From Dehalococcoidia bacterium (GTDB lineage: Bacteria; Chloroflexota; Dehalococcoidia; SHYB01), in assembly GCA_965219875.1 (NCBI GenBank), contig CBDCOW010000001.1:1036468-1100467 (forward strand): a stretch of 64,000 bases of DNA, given 5' to 3'. The translations under genes were made by a program, and so were the position numbers. Every line of letters starts with the position of its first letter. The first letter of the stretch is position 1. Under the pieces are notes generated by a model. The model did not search any database. It was given only the letters and a program-made list of their open reading frames with translations, and was not told the origin of the DNA. This document shows positions 45,518-51,399 of the stretch, in pieces.

Positions 45518-46732
45518 GAGACCTTTGCGTAACCGGGATGTGGTTGTGGTGGTGACGCGGGGGCCTGTTCGAGGCCATGAGGGTGGTGTTGTTTGCGGAC
45601 TCGGCGGCTTGAGGAGCCCCCTGCGAGGACCGATCGGGCCCTCAGCGGGCCCGATTTTGGCCCCGCCAGGCTGCTAGGGCGCACTCCGCCCTGGGACGGG
45701 TGCGTCGACAGCCAGGAGGCGCGCCGCCCGGCGCAGGTTGTAGGCCATGCACTTGAGCCACAGCTCCGTCGCGTTCCGCTCCAGTCCCATGTACCGCACC
45801 TGTCCATACCCGTAGCAGCGCTTCAGGGTTCCGAACACCTTCTCGACCGGCGCACGCACGCGGGAGATCAGCGCGTTCCGCCGCGTTTGCCAATGCGGCA
45901 GCTCCCGCTGGTGCTTGTGCGACCGATGCATGATCCGGTCTTTGATCCCCCGCGACTTCAGCCGGGCGCGCCGTTCCTTCGACTCGTAGGCCTTGTCCGC
46001 GTAGACCGCCGCCTCGTCCCCCGACACCAAGGCGTCCGCCGCCTCGGTATCGTTCACGTTCGCGCTCGTCAGCACCGCCTTCCGTATCAGTCCCGACTCC
46101 CCGTCCACTCCCAGGTGCGCTTTGTACCCAAAGTGGGCCGCGCCCCCTTTCCGCGTCCATCCCGCGTCGGGGTCGGTCGCGCTCCGCGCTCCAGGGCCTT
46201 CCTCCACCGACGGCCGCCGCGCCTGCGCCTTCACGATCGTCGCGTCGAGGAGCGTCCCCTGCTTCACCAGCAGCCGCTGTTCCTCCAACTGGCGGCTCAC
46301 CTCGGCGAACAGCCGCTCGGTGAGCCCCCGTTCGGTCAACGCTTTCCGGAAACGGCTGATCGTCGAGTGGTCCGGCGTCCCGTCCGTCCAGCCCAGGTTC
46401 ACGAATCGGCGGAAAGAGATCCGGTCTCGCAACGCCTCCTCCATCGCCGGGTCCGACGCCCGGTACCACTGCTGCAGCAGCGCGATCTTCACCATCGTCA
46501 GCGGCGGGTAGCCGGGCCTCCCCTCGGGCGAGGCGTGCACTTCCCCCACCACTTTCCCGATCCGTTCCCAGTCCAACATCGCCTCGATATGTTCTAGCGT
46601 CTTGTTCGTCCCAAGCCCTTCCGGCACAAAGGCGTCCACGAATGTTGGCAGACCGGTCTGCTGGTGCATGCTTCCCTCCATCCGAGCGCTGCCCTCTACT
46701 CTGCCCCGCCCGTCCAGTTTTGCAAAGGTCTC
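45518..46732 (-). mobile_element. IS5-family insertion sequence
   Basis: TIRs GAGACCTTTGCGTAAC / GTTTTGCAAAGGTCTC; flanking direct repeat CGTTG (45513-45517, 46733-46737); transposase inside. Confidence 0.93.
45674..46669 (-). CDS. IS5-family DDE transposase
   Basis: GRPGY, LLQQWY..SDPAMEEAL.DR.SFRRF, PDHSTISRFR, LDATI, GYKAH, YADKAY, RAPVEKVFG. Confidence 0.95.
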   Translation of the reverse strand: MHQQTGLPTFVDAFVPEGLGTNKTLEHIEAMLDWERIGKVVGEVHASPEGRPGYPPLTMVKIALLQQWYRASDPAMEEALRDRISFRRFVNLGWTDGTPDHSTISRFRKALTERGLTERLFAEVSRQLEEQRLLVKQGTLLDATIVKAQARRPSVEEGPGARSATDPDAGWTRKGGAAHFGYKAHLGVDGESGLIRKAVLTSANVNDTEAADALVSGDEAAVYADKAYESKERRARLKSRGIKDRIMHRSHKHQRELPHWQTRRNALISRVRAPVEKVFGTLKRCYGYGQVRYMGLERNATELWLKCMAYNLRRAARLLAVDAPVPGRSAP

Positions 46733-46828
46733 CGTTGAGAGAAGAGGCAAGACCTCCCGGCCCTACCCATGCTTGAGCCCGAGGGCGGGTTGCGCAAAGG
46801 TTTCCGGTGGGTGAGAGGGCGGCGGGGA

Positions 46829-47885: not shown

Positions 47886-48344
47886 TTAGGACAGGTTGAA
47901 GAGGGCGCCCACCATGCCCCCAAAGACGAGGTGGCGGACGAGCGAGGCTGCGGCGTACTCCGCGCCGAGGTTGCTCATGAAGAGGCCGGGGGGCTTCATG
48001 CGCCCCGCTTGGATCTCGCGGTGAACGTCGCCGAACGGGTCCATCGCGAGCATGACGAGCGCCCAGTGGACGACGCCGGCGAGCAGGCCGATCCACCAGT
48101 TCGGGCGCACGTCGAGGATGAGGAAGGCGAAGGCGTAGAGAAAGGCGAAGACGACGCCCATGCCGAAGTGCATGAGCGCCCCGTAGTAGGGAGCACGGTT
48201 GCGCGGCAGGCGCAGCATGCTCCCCAAGATGAGGGTGACGTCGGTGCGGGGCAGGCCCACCACGGGCAGGGCGTACATCACGACCGTCATGACGCCGGTG
48301 GCGGCGAGCCCGACCCAGACCGAGTCTCCAAGGTTCAGGTCCAT
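47886..48344 (-). CDS. Hypothetical integral membrane protein
   Basis: About four hydrophobic helices, H..MG.VFA and HLVFG motifs. Confidence 0.75.
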   Translation of the reverse strand: MDLNLGDSVWVGLAATGVMTVVMYALPVVGLPRTDVTLILGSMLRLPRNRAPYYGALMHFGMGVVFAFLYAFAFLILDVRPNWWIGLLAGVVHWALVMLAMDPFGDVHREIQAGRMKPPGLFMSNLGAEYAAASLVRHLVFGGMVGALFNLS

Positions 48345-48617: not shown

Positions 48618-49382
48618 ATGATGAAGAGACTTTCGCCACGTTTTGCCGCTCTCTTCGCCGCGATTGTCGCGGCGGCCCTCGTCATCTCGGCGTGTGGAAG
48701 CGACGACCCCGCGCCCGCGCCCACCCAACCCCCGGCGCAGCCGACGACGGCTCCCTCGCAACCGTCGCCGACGCCGCAGCCCCCTGCCACGGACCCGCCG
48801 CCCGCGGCCACCGCCACGGCCACGGAGGCTGCGATGGCGAAGACGCCCGAGGCCACCTCCGCGCCAGAGGCGACGGTTGCCGCGACCGCTAGGCCAATAC
48901 CCACCGCGACGCGGGCTACCGAAGCCCCCAGCGAGCCGCCCGCCGACTTGGCGACCGACTTCACCCTGCTGAGCGCCAGCGGCGAGACTGTGTCCCTCTC
49001 CTCCTACCGAGGGCAGCAGGCGGTCATCCTCGTCTTCTCCCGAGGCTTGTGGTGAACCATCTGCCGTCAGCAGCTCGTGGAGCTGCAAGGTGAGTACGAA
49101 TCGCTCCAGGCCGAAGGCATCGAGGTGCTGTCGGTCAGTACCGACGACGAGAGTTCCGCCGGCCTCGCGGACCGCTTGGGCTTCGAATACCCCATACTGT
49201 TCAACCCCGAGCACGACGTGATCGAGCAGTACGGGGTCTTTAACCTCCACGGCGACGGCTTTGCCGCGCACGCGGTCTTCGTCGTTGATCGGGACGGGGC
49301 GATTCGGTGGAAGCACATCAGTAGGACCACCTACGACACGCCGTCCACGGGGGATGTGATCGAGAGGGCGAGAGCGCTCTAG
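48618..49382 (+). CDS. Predicted selenoprotein: AhpC/TSA peroxiredoxin-like lipoprotein, copy 1 (UGA 49053-49055 = Sec)
   Basis: Lipobox ISAC, PAT linker, DFTL..GETVSLS, VFSRGLW-UGA-TICRQQL continuing in frame into ORF 49077-49382 (FVVDRDGAIRW). Confidence 0.85.
49070..49086 (+). promoter_or_regulatory. Bacterial SECIS-like hairpin
   Basis: GCAGCTC-GTG-GAGCTGC, a 7-bp stem whose G-containing loop begins 21 nt after the UGA. Confidence 0.65.
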
Positions 49383-49400
49383 ACGCCGCATGGGCCAGGG

Positions 49401-49460
49401 CTAGTTCGAGTCGAAGCCCTGGTCGATCTCCTTAAGGAAGCGCTCGATCTCGGGTGCCAG
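49401..49460 (-). pseudogene. Duplicated 3' end of the PAC2 gene
   Basis: Near-identical to 50518-50577; encodes LAPEIERFLKEIDQGFDSN*. Confidence 0.85.
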
Positions 49461-49506
49461 AAGGTTGGAGTATGGAGACTGCGCGTCGACACCGACGGCA
49501 ATTAAG

Positions 49507-50496
49507 ATGATCAAGAGACTTTCGCCACGTTTCGCCGCCCTTGCGGCAGCCGCTCTTTCGCTGGCGCTGATTGTCGCGGCGTGTGGAAGCGACGATCCTG
49601 CGCCCGCGCCCACCGAGCGCCCTGCCGCGCCGACGACGGCCCCGGCGACGCCGCAGCCCCCCGCAACCGACCCGCCGCCCGGGGCTACCGCTACGGCCAC
49701 GGAGGCTGCGGTGGCGAAGACGCCCGAGGCAACCTCCGCGCCGGAGGCGACGGCGGCCGCAACGGCCAGGCCAATACCAACCGCGACACGGGCCGCAGCG
49801 CCAGAGGCGACGGCGGCGCCCGACACCCCCGAGCCTACTGCGGTGCCTACCACCGAGGCCCCCACAGCGACTGAACCGCCCGCGGCTACCGCCACGGCCA
49901 CGGCGCCAGCGATGGAGAAGCCGACCGAGGCCGCCACGTCAGTTCCGGAGGCGACTGAGGTTCCGGCTCCGACCGCGGTGCCGGAGGCGACGGCTACGCC
50001 GGCCCCAACCGCACCGCCCACGGCGACTGAACCGCCCGCCGCCGAGCCGCCGCAGGACTTGGCGATCGACTTCTCCCTACCGAGTGCGAGCGGCGAGACG
50101 GTGACCCTCGCCTCCTACCGAGGGCAGCAGACGGTCATCCTCGTCTTCTCCCGAGGCTTGTGGTGAACTATCTGCCGTCAGCAGCTCGTGGAGCTGCAAG
50201 GTGAGTACGAATCGCTTCAGGCCGAAGGCATTGAGGTGCTGTCGGTCAGCACCGACGACGAGAGTTCCGCGGGCCTCGCGGACCGCTTGGGCTTCGAATA
50301 CCCCATACTGTTCAACCCCGAGCATGACGTGATCGAGCAGTACGGGGTCTTTAACCTCCACGGCGACGGCTTTGCCGCGCACGCGGTCTTCCTCGTCGAT
50401 CGCGATGGGGCGATTCGGTGGAAGCACATCAGTAGGACCACCTACGACACGCCGTCCACGGCGGATGTGATCGAGAGGGCGAAGGCGCTCTCGTAG
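49507..50496 (+). CDS. Predicted selenoprotein: AhpC/TSA peroxiredoxin-like lipoprotein, copy 2 (UGA 50164-50166 = Sec)
   Basis: Lipobox VAAC, longer PAT linker, RGLW-UGA-TICRQQL in frame with ORF 50188-50496. Confidence 0.85.
50181..50197 (+). promoter_or_regulatory. Bacterial SECIS-like hairpin
   Basis: Identical GCAGCTC-GTG-GAGCTGC at the same spacing from the UGA. Confidence 0.65.
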
Positions 50497-50517
50497 GCGC
50501 GCGGCGCGCGTCCGGGG

Positions 50518-51399
50518 CTAGTTCGAGTCGAAGCCCTGGTCGATCTCTTTGAGGAAGCGCTCGATTTCCGGTGCCAGCGGGGCCTGCTCCGTTGTCTGCC
50601 GCGCCGCGGGCCTCGCGTCATAGTTCCGTTCGAGCTGCTGCACCACTTCCTTGAGGCGCGGGTTTGACTCCAACGCCTGGGAGACCTCGTCGTACTGGGT
50701 CTTGCCGCGCCGGTCGTCGATGAGCCGCTCGGGGAGGTCGTAGAGGAGGCGTAGCGATTCAAGGAGCCGCGCGGCGCCGCTGAAGTCCTCGTCCAACTGC
50801 ACGTATTGGGGGAGGTGGACGATCATGCTCGCGGTCTCCATACCGTGGTCGGTGGCGAAGCGGTTGGCCACGTACATGATGGTGGTCGGGCCCTCGTAGG
50901 TGCTCTCTTCCACCTTGGCCTCCCGCGCCTGCCGCTGCGATTCCGGTCCCTGCACCGAGCCGGTCACCATGAGCGGGCGGGTATGGGGCACCGCGTCGTA
51001 CATTGCTCCTACCAGGGAGTAGCGCGCCACGTTCATCGCCTGGAGGACCTCGGTTACGCCCTCGGCGAAGTCCTCGCCGAACGCATGGGGCTCCAGAAGG
51101 TGGAAGAGCAGGAGGTCGCGGGCGCCTTCCCGGCGGCAGGCGTAGATGAAGCTGTTGGGAATGGTGACGTCGCGGATGCCCTCGCGCATGGCGATCACGG
51201 GGCGGTAGCGGGTGAAGTCGTAGAAGTTCCCCGGCCGGGCCAGCTTCCCGACCTCGGCGGCGTCCAAGTGGCGCTCGAGCCGGGACAAGACGATGGTCCC
51301 GACACTGCCCACATCCACCCAGGGGCGGAGCATCACGAGGGCGTGGGGCGCCTCCAACTCGGGCAGCGGCTCCACCATTTCGAACGGTCCGATTCGCAT
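50518..51399 (-). CDS. PAC2 (proteasome assembly chaperone-like) family protein
   Basis: PWVDVG, FYDFTRYRP, VPHTRP, YEGPT, HLPQY, EIERFL. Confidence 0.85.
   Translation of the reverse strand: MRIGPFEMVEPLPELEAPHALVMLRPWVDVGSVGTIVLSRLERHLDAAEVGKLARPGNFYDFTRYRPVIAMREGIRDVTIPNSFIYACRREGARDLLLFHLLEPHAFGEDFAEGVTEVLQAMNVARYSLVGAMYDAVPHTRPLMVTGSVQGPESQRQAREAKVEESTYEGPTTIMYVANRFATDHGMETASMIVHLPQYVQLDEDFSGAARLLESLRLLYDLPERLIDDRRGKTQYDEVSQALESNPRLKEVVQQLERNYDARPAARQTTEQAPLAPEIERFLKEIDQGFDSN

Follow-up and report, generated by a model that had tools for sequence, protein, structure and literature searches.

A tandem pair of genes on the forward strand of a Dehalococcoidia bacterium genome (assembly GCA_965219875.1, contig CBDCOW010000001.1) is best explained as encoding two surface-exposed selenoproteins, each interrupted by a single in-frame TGA at the active site of a peroxiredoxin (Prx)-like domain carried on a lipid-anchored stalk. 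The pair lies in the 64-kb stretch of DNA that was analyzed, hereafter the window, within a host genome (G000) of 3.76 Mb in 6 contigs that is 94% complete. The explanation as a whole, comprising selenocysteine (Sec) recoding, export and redox chemistry of Prx-like lipoproteins, is given a probability of about 0.8. The two genes are real and well-supported selenoprotein genes of a selenoprotein family already known for about 20 years. What is new is a model of the selenocysteine insertion sequence (SECIS) for this clade, a hint from gene fusions at a TlpA-like reductant, a lipoprotein with three predicted Sec residues and the pairing of short and long stalks, and the gain is incremental.

Two genes, each a single frame interrupted by one TGA

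The open reading frames (ORFs) 48618-49055 and 49077-49382 lie in a common frame whose sole interruption is the TGA at 49053-49055, and ORFs 49507-50166 and 50188-50496, also on the forward strand, lie in a common frame interrupted only by the TGA at 50164-50166 (Table 1). The sequence-only reading had joined each of these ORF pairs into one gene broken at RGLW-TGA-TIC, and this was borne out by the sequence, by the ORF list and by Pfam AhpC-TSA matches that span the TGA (gene 1, residues 110-231, E 1.5e-27, 96.4 bits; gene 2, residues 183-305, E 6.1e-27, 94.5 bits; cut-off 26). Both read-through products contain ...VFSRGLW-U-TICRQQLVELQ..., where U stands for Sec, and the GTG 'start' of each apparent downstream ORF (49077 and 50188) is the loop of the hairpin described below. 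For gene 2, an alternative TTG start at 49465, upstream of 49507, is less likely.

Gene callers were expected to split such genes, and indeed the public protein entries for the pair and its close relatives form 15 clusters consisting entirely of C-terminal fragments of 101-102 aa. No protein of near length (139-445 aa) was found among 660 candidates from public collections at E ≤ 1e-10, a strict threshold that is uninformative on Cys forms.

Conservation of the TGA and selection on both sides of it

Matches were obtained in 40 of 41 related genomes, and the best 29 rows, from the genus and the family, each carry exactly one TGA. In the loci that were fetched, drawn from 10 genomes, all 16 orthologues have TGA in the same W-U-x-x-C column. 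Species-representative genomes yielded 251 relatives, and 79 loci were kept for comparison, coming from metagenome-assembled genomes (MAGs) of Dehalococcoidia, other Chloroflexota, Anaerolineae and a few Spirochaetia and Clostridia, and from the cultured SAR202 Ca. Lucifugimonas marina JH545. The orthologue of this cultured bacterium (L089) reads FYRAYW-U-TFCR at the active site and has the lipobox VVACG. These loci gave 102 tblastn hits, with TGA in the column in 88, TGT or TGC in nine and other codons in five. Six of the nine Cys codons lie in a separate upstream TlpA-like domain; L111 and L116 are true Cys orthologues, the assignment of L114 is ambiguous, and the five hits with other codons come from Cys-less paralogues. 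Distant homologues have Cys at this position (WCxxC of TlpA-like proteins) or are ordinary Prxs. In the alignment of homologues that had been proposed as a check, close homologues thus almost always have TGA at this column and distant ones have Cys.

The codons beyond the TGA are under constraint. Among 11 copies from the genus (55 pairs), the median ratio of non-synonymous to synonymous substitution rates (dN/dS) was 0.24 for the 107 codons after the TGA (pN/pS 0.285) and 0.12 for the 36 domain codons before it, and the two window copies differ after the TGA by 10 synonymous and three non-synonymous changes (dS 0.15, dN 0.01). Such purifying selection, together with the conserved TGA column, rules out an old nonsense mutation predating the duplication, the case that the sequence-only reading had itself named as fatal to it. 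In natural populations, metagenome contigs of two further DNA studies span both TGAs with the codon unchanged, and a 226-nt metatranscriptome contig of a relative (12 differences, about 95% identical) spans the first. In RNA runs X20 and X21, 9% and 7% of words, respectively, were present, as contigs only.

A diverged paralogue was observed directly downstream of the Sec gene in five SAR202-type loci (L073:1145, L078:2196, L095:2209, L100:2335 and L130:2497). Both redox residues are lost from it, the U column being occupied by Asn, Asp or Gly and the C column by Asp, and our own regular expression detected a lipobox-like motif in the upstream frame of three of the five. The paralogue may act as a redox-dead partner.

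Selenocysteine machinery in the host genome

The host genome contains a tRNA-Sec (71.6 bits, cut-off 47), which ARAGORN reports as tRNA-SeC with anticodon tca, and selA (542 bits), selB (330 bits) and selD (367 bits) all score above their curated cut-offs, so that each component looked for was found. The window itself has no Rfam match at the gathering threshold and no tRNA by ARAGORN, and the machinery sits on other contigs. The selD gene (G000:C3:1249996-1250919; locus L018, TGA at locus position 1531) has one in-frame TGA of its own, in the motif AAGGG-U-AAKYGPGDL, and the host SelD is thus itself a predicted selenoprotein. No internal stops were found in the frames of selA, selB, lgt and lspA, which, combined with the presence of one TGA per redoxin gene, indicates that TGA is not a general sense codon in this organism.

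A covarying hairpin downstream of the UGA

The hairpin GCAGCUC-GUG-GAGCUGC is identical in both genes, starting 14 nt past the UGA, and 21 nt separate the UGA from the loop. It belongs to the predicted minimum-free-energy (MFE) fold of both copies. The isolated 21-nt hairpin has −11.6 kcal/mol (z −3.14, one of 200 shuffles as good), and windows of 60-91 nt after the TGA were not unusually stable relative to shuffles (z −0.33 to −1.31). Energy alone is therefore not proof of the hairpin; the comparative evidence is. In the passage of PMC13188914 that sets out the bacterial SECIS (bSECIS) model, five constraints are given: 3-9 nt in the apical loop, 4-16 bp in the stem, a G within the first two nucleotides of the loop, a UGA-to-loop distance of 16-37 nt and an MFE ≤ −7.5 kcal/mol. 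With its 3-nt GUG loop, 7-bp stem, spacing and energy, the hairpin falls within all five.

Covariation was assessed in 85 sequences, 84 of them distinct. Paired cells made up 92.5% of the stem, versus 84.5% in column shuffles (0 of 500 reached the observed value) and 14-47% for slid partners. Double-sided changes occur in four of the seven stem pairs: pair 18-34 at the base of the stem (G-C 61, U-A 9, C-G 2), pair 21-31 (G-C 46, A-U 30, G-U 7, non-pair 1), pair 22-30 (C-G 79, A-U 5, with 5 of 5 paired and Leu-to-Ile coupled with Glu-to-Asp) and pair 24-28 (C-G 50, G-C 3), the last being open in 30 sequences, which yields a 5-nt loop. The hairpin initially noticed in the two copies has thus been read in the sequence, folded and found to covary in relatives. 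A paralogue in the same genome (L023, YRGFG-U-GIC) has CCAACUG-GAG-CAGUUGG, a hairpin of different sequence with exactly the same position and geometry.

Fold, active site and family of the catalytic domain

An AlphaFold model of the domain, built on the 85-row alignment, shows a thioredoxin/peroxiredoxin fold (pLDDT 95.1, pTM 0.91) in which U37 (domain numbering) directly precedes helix 38-49. Fold matches were led by peroxiredoxins, with ResA-type proteins scoring lower. The active site is of the UxxC type (W-U-T-I-C), not TxxU, and F6, L8, F31, R33, U37, C40, Q43, L85 and Y96 are invariant in the 85 sequences. Aligned with AhpE, the domain lacks the canonical peroxiredoxin motif PxxxTxxC and the catalytic Arg. 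The initial description of the proteins as peroxiredoxin-like members of AhpC/TSA held for the Prx fold and PF00578 and had to be corrected as to type: they are not canonical AhpC-type enzymes, with Sec at the Thr of PxxxTxxC and Pro and Arg missing. All 15 NCBIfam matches fell under their curated cut-offs, so no curated model covers the clade. Membership of ResA, TlpA or DsbE was considered and rejected (49, 25 and 23 bits versus NCBIfam cut-offs of 170, 230 and 123, respectively).

By likeness to published descriptions of PF00578 and UxxC, the pair is assigned to the predicted 'Prx-like thiol:disulfide oxidoreductase' (Prx-like 1) selenoproteins. The Prx-like selenoprotein is described in a passage of PMC1088965 as having an AhpC/TSA-family domain with only distant homology to peroxiredoxins. 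In the corresponding passages, PMC2398784 counts 225 sequences of 'Prx-like 1, pfam00578, UxxC' in the Global Ocean Sampling (GOS) data, and PMC13188914 lists 'Prx-like thiol:disulfide oxidoreductase, PF00578, UxxC/UxxU' as a high-confidence prediction. The parts of these papers and of PMC1794560 that deal with the family present it as abundant in marine metagenomes. Since Prx-like UxxC selenoproteins have been predicted since 2004-2005, according to these passages, the architecture is less unusual than was thought from the sequence.

Three other redoxin-fold genes with one TGA each were observed in the host genome: a short-linker lipoprotein with YRGFG-U-GIC (G000:C3:758100-758534), a true TxxU-type Sec-peroxiredoxin with FTGG-U (G000:C6:367018-367401) and a gene of the RGTI-U-PNC type from which a recognizable lipobox is absent (G000:C3:559702-560124).

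Predicted export signal, lipid anchor and stalk

The lipobox consensus is [LVI][ASTVI][GAS]C. Both N-termini have a K/R-rich n-region, a 15-residue hydrophobic core and a lipobox (VISAC in gene 1, IVAAC in gene 2) ending at Cys26; the gene 1 lipoprotein signal reads MMKRLSPR-FAALFAAIVAAALV-ISAC, and neither signal peptide contains a twin-arginine motif. Signal peptidase II (SPII) signals were called by inspection by eye and with our own regular expression. All 16 orthologues from the 10 genomes have a lipobox, followed by linkers of 50-202 aa. By our own rule, 68 of the 88 TGA homologues of named genomes carry an SPII-like signal; the remaining 20 were classified by eye as having transmembrane anchors or SPI-like signals, or as internal domains of exported multidomain fusions. 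Genes lgt (158 bits, cut-off 118.9) and lspA (94.5 bits, cut-off 73.95) are present in the host genome. The signal peptide, lipobox and Pro/Ala/Thr stalk that the sequence-only reading had described were found in both proteins, with stalks of 82 and 156 aa, and its proposal of an exported, membrane-tethered protein gains support from the conserved SPII-type signals and the presence of lgt and lspA. It is likely that the two products are exported and lipid-anchored on a flexible tether, their site in a Chloroflexota cell probably being the outer face of the cytoplasmic membrane.

In the four selenoproteome papers PMC1088965, PMC2398784, PMC13188914 and PMC1794560, 'signal peptide', 'lipoprotein' and 'periplasm(ic)' do not occur; these papers therefore do not describe the lipobox, the Pro/Thr/Ala stalk, the pairing of short and long copies or the TlpA fusions. 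Targeted searches of the open-access literature yielded no description of Sec-containing Prx-like lipoproteins, and the papers retrieved that name both SAR202 and selenocysteine do so incidentally. Other Sec-linked lipoproteins, SaoX and SaoC, are the subject of a preprint by Haft.

Tandem duplication and pairing of stalk lengths

The two copies share 84% identity when aligned over their whole length, with about a dozen base differences across the Prx domain, and differ mainly in the length of the stalk. The repeat includes the last ~64 nt of a minus-strand PAC2-family gene (50518-51399): positions 49398-49461 match 50515-50578. The presence of this PAC2 3' end behind gene 1 indicates that the repeat unit is larger than the redoxin gene. 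In other members of the genus, the same intergenic text precedes the long-stalk copy.

A short-stalk copy (55-94 aa) stands beside a long-stalk copy (165-171 aa) in four other genomes of the genus, so that five of the six genus genomes carrying an orthologue have the short and long pair. With this query a single copy was found in G006, the closest relative (L031/L052). Its stalk of 107 aa begins like that of gene 1 and continues like the middle of the gene 2 stalk, as if unequal recombination had fused the two. Over the signal and the first residues of the stalk, the long-stalk copies elsewhere share 87-91% identity with gene 2, against 62-68% for gene 1. In a tree of the domains of the 11 genus copies, the two catalytic domains of the host genome cluster with that of G006 (100/100), and outside this clade the tree gave no resolution. 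Because the N-terminus of gene 2 resembles other long-stalk copies while the host domains cluster together, the sequences suggest an old duplication followed by homogenization of the catalytic domain. As to gene conversion, they are suggestive only.

Fusions, candidate redox partners and flanking genes

In six loci labelled Anaerolineae or Caldilineaceae (L093, L098, L099, L105, L125 and L128), a single ORF runs from a transmembrane anchor through a helical region and a TlpA-like WCPPC domain to the Sec domain, and in one of them (L099:217-1938) Pfam confirms two redoxin domains (284-409 and 429-551). These fusions hint that a TlpA-like domain may be the reductant of the Sec domain. A different string is found in a Dehalococcoidia MAG (L079:127-1935, forward strand), where an ORF of 603 aa encodes a lipoprotein with three Prx-like domains separated by Pro/Thr linkers. 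Each domain has its own in-frame TGA at the UxxC, giving three predicted Sec residues, and Pfam recognizes three AhpC-TSA stretches.

The host genome encodes a TlpA-like WCGPC domain (G000:C1:1331359-1331703) that shares an open frame with a DsbD_TM match (35.9 bits, cut-off 27.1). This match lies slightly upstream of the ORF submitted to hmmscan, in the same open frame, and the link to CcdA is tentative. In the flanks of the 79 loci, recurrent clusters comprise an ORF judged by eye to be aminotransferase-like (18 loci), a second ORF cluster (17 loci) and a Cys-less paralogue lipoprotein (9 loci).

The window neighbours of the pair encode a dienelactone hydrolase, a DUF6789 membrane protein, the PAC2 protein and an amidohydrolase, with no functional link evident. 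The small DUF6789 protein (47886-48344, minus strand; 28.6 bits, barely above cut-off) is directly upstream and divergent, and a link to the redoxins is not evident. An intact transposase of IS5/IS4-type DDE class (45674-46750, minus strand; Pfam DDE_Tnp_1 108 bits, DUF772 89 bits) lies 1.9 kb upstream of the pair.

Table 1. Features of the two predicted Sec lipoprotein genes, in window coordinates
Feature	Position	Strand	Basis
Gene 1, predicted short-stalk Sec lipoprotein, 254 aa when read through TGA (U146)	48618..49382	+	ORFs, translation, Pfam
Gene 1, predicted signal peptide (MMKRLSPRFAALFAAIVAAALVISA) and lipobox Cys26, codon TGT at 48693-48695	48618..48695	+	sequence inspection
Gene 1, Pro/Thr/Ala-rich stalk, 82 aa, 77% P/T/A/E	48696..48941	+	composition
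Gene 1, peroxiredoxin-fold domain (AhpC-TSA), RxxxUxxC site	48942..49379	+	Pfam, alignment, model, fold match
Gene 1, predicted Sec codon TGA	49053..49055	+	sequence, homologues
Gene 1, predicted bSECIS hairpin, 7-bp stem, GUG loop 49077-49079	49070..49086	+	folding, covariation
Copy of PAC2 gene 3' end, behind gene 1	49398..49461	.	self-comparison with 50515-50578
Gene 2, predicted long-stalk Sec lipoprotein, 329 aa when read through TGA (U220)	49507..50496	+	ORFs, translation, Pfam
Gene 2, predicted signal peptide (MIKRLSPRFAALAAAALSLALIVAA) and lipobox Cys26 codon	49507..49584	+	sequence inspection
Gene 2, Pro/Thr/Ala-rich stalk, 156 aa, 86% P/T/A/E	49585..50052	+	composition
Gene 2, peroxiredoxin-fold domain, RxxxUxxC site	50053..50493	+	Pfam, 85-row alignment
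Gene 2, predicted Sec codon TGA	50164..50166	+	sequence, homologues
Gene 2, predicted bSECIS hairpin, identical to that of gene 1, loop 50188-50190	50181..50197	+	folding, covariation

Discussion

The proposed mechanism would start on the ribosome, where SelB carrying Sec-tRNA(Sec) would bind the 7-bp GUG-loop hairpin 21 nt downstream, so that the UGA would be read as selenocysteine and one polypeptide would be made in place of two fragments. A Sec-type (general secretory) signal peptide with a lipobox would send the unfolded chain across the membrane, and Lgt and LspA would lipidate and cleave it at Cys26. The disordered Pro/Thr/Ala stalk, short in gene 1 and long in gene 2, would then hold the catalytic domain off the outer face of the membrane. 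There, R-x-x-x-U-x-x-C at the N-terminus of a helix would form a thioredoxin-like active site on a peroxiredoxin fold, the selenolate attacking the oxidant and the Cys at +3 resolving the adduct by forming a Se-S bond. Re-reduction of the Sec domain may fall to a TlpA-like thioredoxin domain that receives electrons through a membrane conduit of the CcdA/DsbD type.

Decoding of both TGAs as selenocysteine is very probable, and we infer the incorporation of selenium itself; taking machinery, homologues, SECIS, selection and populations together, Sec decoding appears to be the only well-supported reading of these codons. Three other readings were weighed. Read-through without selenium, in which near-cognate decoding would insert Cys, Trp or another residue or TGA would be a sense codon in this organism, has nothing specific in its favour and is highly improbable: the selA, selB, lgt and lspA frames are stop-free with exactly one TGA per redoxin gene, and a covarying hairpin at SECIS distance coexists with a dedicated tRNA-Sec and SelB. 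Alternatively, the TGA could terminate translation to leave two products, a stalk-only lipoprotein and a cytosolic 101-aa fragment initiated at the GTG which, 21 nt past each TGA, opens an ORF of 101-102 aa. However, this GTG is the loop of the hairpin and is replaced by GGG, GGU, GUC or GUU in many relatives, which argues against a conserved start codon; moreover, each fragment would lack half of a single compact domain modelled at pLDDT 95, and the active-site motif would be severed between W and TIC. This makes a two-product outcome very hard to credit. Least probable of all, and in effect refuted, is the reading of both TGAs as genuine nonsense mutations older than the duplication, with the two copies as decaying pseudogenes, even though standard gene calling splits both genes and public collections hold only the C-terminal fragments (15 clusters, none of near length among the 660 candidates). 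Against decay, the TGA is kept at the same codon in the genus, in the family and in many other Chloroflexota, its position coincides exactly with the catalytic column, which is occupied by Cys in distant homologues, the genes contain no other stops or frameshifts, dN/dS after the TGA is 0.24 and the Sec machinery is complete.

Several observations weigh against the proposed explanation of the pair as exported Sec redox proteins. As regards the hairpin, the relatives compared are not independent of one another, and one of the two peptide patterns used to collect loci (CR[QRE]QLVELQ) overlaps the peptide that the hairpin encodes. The commonest double change, CAG...CTG to CAA...TTG (30 cells), may in part track genomic G+C, although the asymmetry of the mixed forms (seven G.U and one non-pair A.C) argues for pairing over G+C drift. 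The evidence from populations, which consists of contigs, is weak, and the sole RNA contig carries no strand or translation information. As regards the chemistry, an invariant Arg aligns with the Pro of AhpE, Sec with its Thr, and His, Pro, Gly or Ala with its catalytic Arg, the Cys being kept, and consequently peroxidase activity would have to rest on Sec and the invariant Arg33. As regards the electron supply, DsbD_TM was absent at E ≤ 0.001 when the 372-aa CcdA-like ORF (G000:C1:1331xxx) was scanned from its first start, and no conserved redox neighbour was found in the window or among the 781 flank ORFs of the 79 loci, which were clustered and read by eye.

For the function of the exported Sec lipoproteins, a surface-tethered scavenger or reductase of peroxides or other oxidants is preferred, by a modest preponderance of probability, because the scaffold is that of a peroxiredoxin, the order of the fusions resembles a thioredoxin-to-peroxidase relay, genes of client pathways are not linked in the window or in the recurrent flank clusters, and the number of copies, the varied stalks and the multi-domain strings point to scavenging in bulk. 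Less probable is a reductase for the disulfides of specific clients, along the lines of ResA, TlpA, CcmG or the pneumococcal Etrx proteins; apocytochrome c, copper-centre assembly factors or a surface methionine sulfoxide reductase could be its clients. W-U-x-x-C resembles the WCxxC motif of reductases of the TlpA/ResA type, which falls in the same alignment column, NCBIfam gives weak matches to ResA, TlpA, DsbE and StoA, and Cys-based surface lipoproteins of thioredoxin fold serving MsrAB are known, as a passage of PMC3914529 reports; the absence of the canonical Prx Thr, Pro and Arg also speaks for a client reductase. Nevertheless, the domain resembles AhpE/BCP peroxiredoxins more than it does ResA in both sequence and fold, the window contains no gene for cytochrome maturation, Sco or Msr, and none was recognized by eye in the recurrent flank clusters of the 79 loci. 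The relay-like TlpA fusion speaks against it as well, and tandem copies, variable stalks and the three-domain string suggest bulk scavenging instead of service to one partner. A more specific version of the scavenger, and a doubtful one, is a dedicated extracellular seleno-peroxidase 'brush' of marine and sediment Chloroflexota in place of a generic Prx-like redoxin, with Arg33 taking over from the Prx Arg, TlpA-like recharging, two distances from the membrane set by the short and long stalks and, in some lineages, up to three Sec domains per lipoprotein.

The predicted export would place selenocysteine chemistry beyond the cytoplasmic membrane, which is relevant to the defence of these bacteria against external oxidants and to the amount of selenium that they need. 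Two Dehalococcoidia MAGs are among the selenoprotein-richest bacteria in the part of the BSepDB account that ranks them, with 46-49 selenoproteins each. SAR202-type Dehalococcoidia are abundant in the ocean, and since public collections hold only fragment entries, automated annotation hides widespread predicted exported selenoproteins in them.

The closest solved relative by sequence is the 1-Cys peroxiredoxin AhpE of M. tuberculosis (PDB 1xxu, 1xvw and 4x0x; phmmer E 5e-13), which is also the best compact fold match (Foldseek TM 0.87-0.89, root-mean-square deviation 1.8-2.0 Å, 30-31% identity). The second Cys of the UxxC aligns with the peroxidatic Cys of AhpE and the Sec with its conserved Thr. 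AhpE, however, is cytoplasmic and has P-x-x-x-T-x-x-C and a conserved Arg, whereas here Arg stands for Pro, Sec for Thr, and the Arg column is variable. The best NCBIfam match, NF040769 (SelL-related redox protein), is likewise a Prx-like redox domain with a Sec/Cys motif, but its scores of 61.1 and 60.5 bits are half of the cut-off of 120 and cover only residues 112-205, so the pair does not belong to it. Electrons reach Etrx1, Etrx2 and the ResA/TlpA-type reductases through CcdA. As set out in a passage of PMC3914529, Etrx1 and Etrx2 of S. pneumoniae and ResA/TlpA are extracytoplasmic, membrane-tethered proteins of thioredoxin fold with a W-C-x-x-C-type motif, and Etrx1 and Etrx2 protect against extracellular oxidative stress. 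They differ from the present proteins in using Cys, not Sec, on a scaffold of the TlpA type, not the Prx type. Finally, if the 'brush' were to exist, the three-Sec lipoprotein would be a bacterial counterpart of multi-Sec proteins such as SelP.

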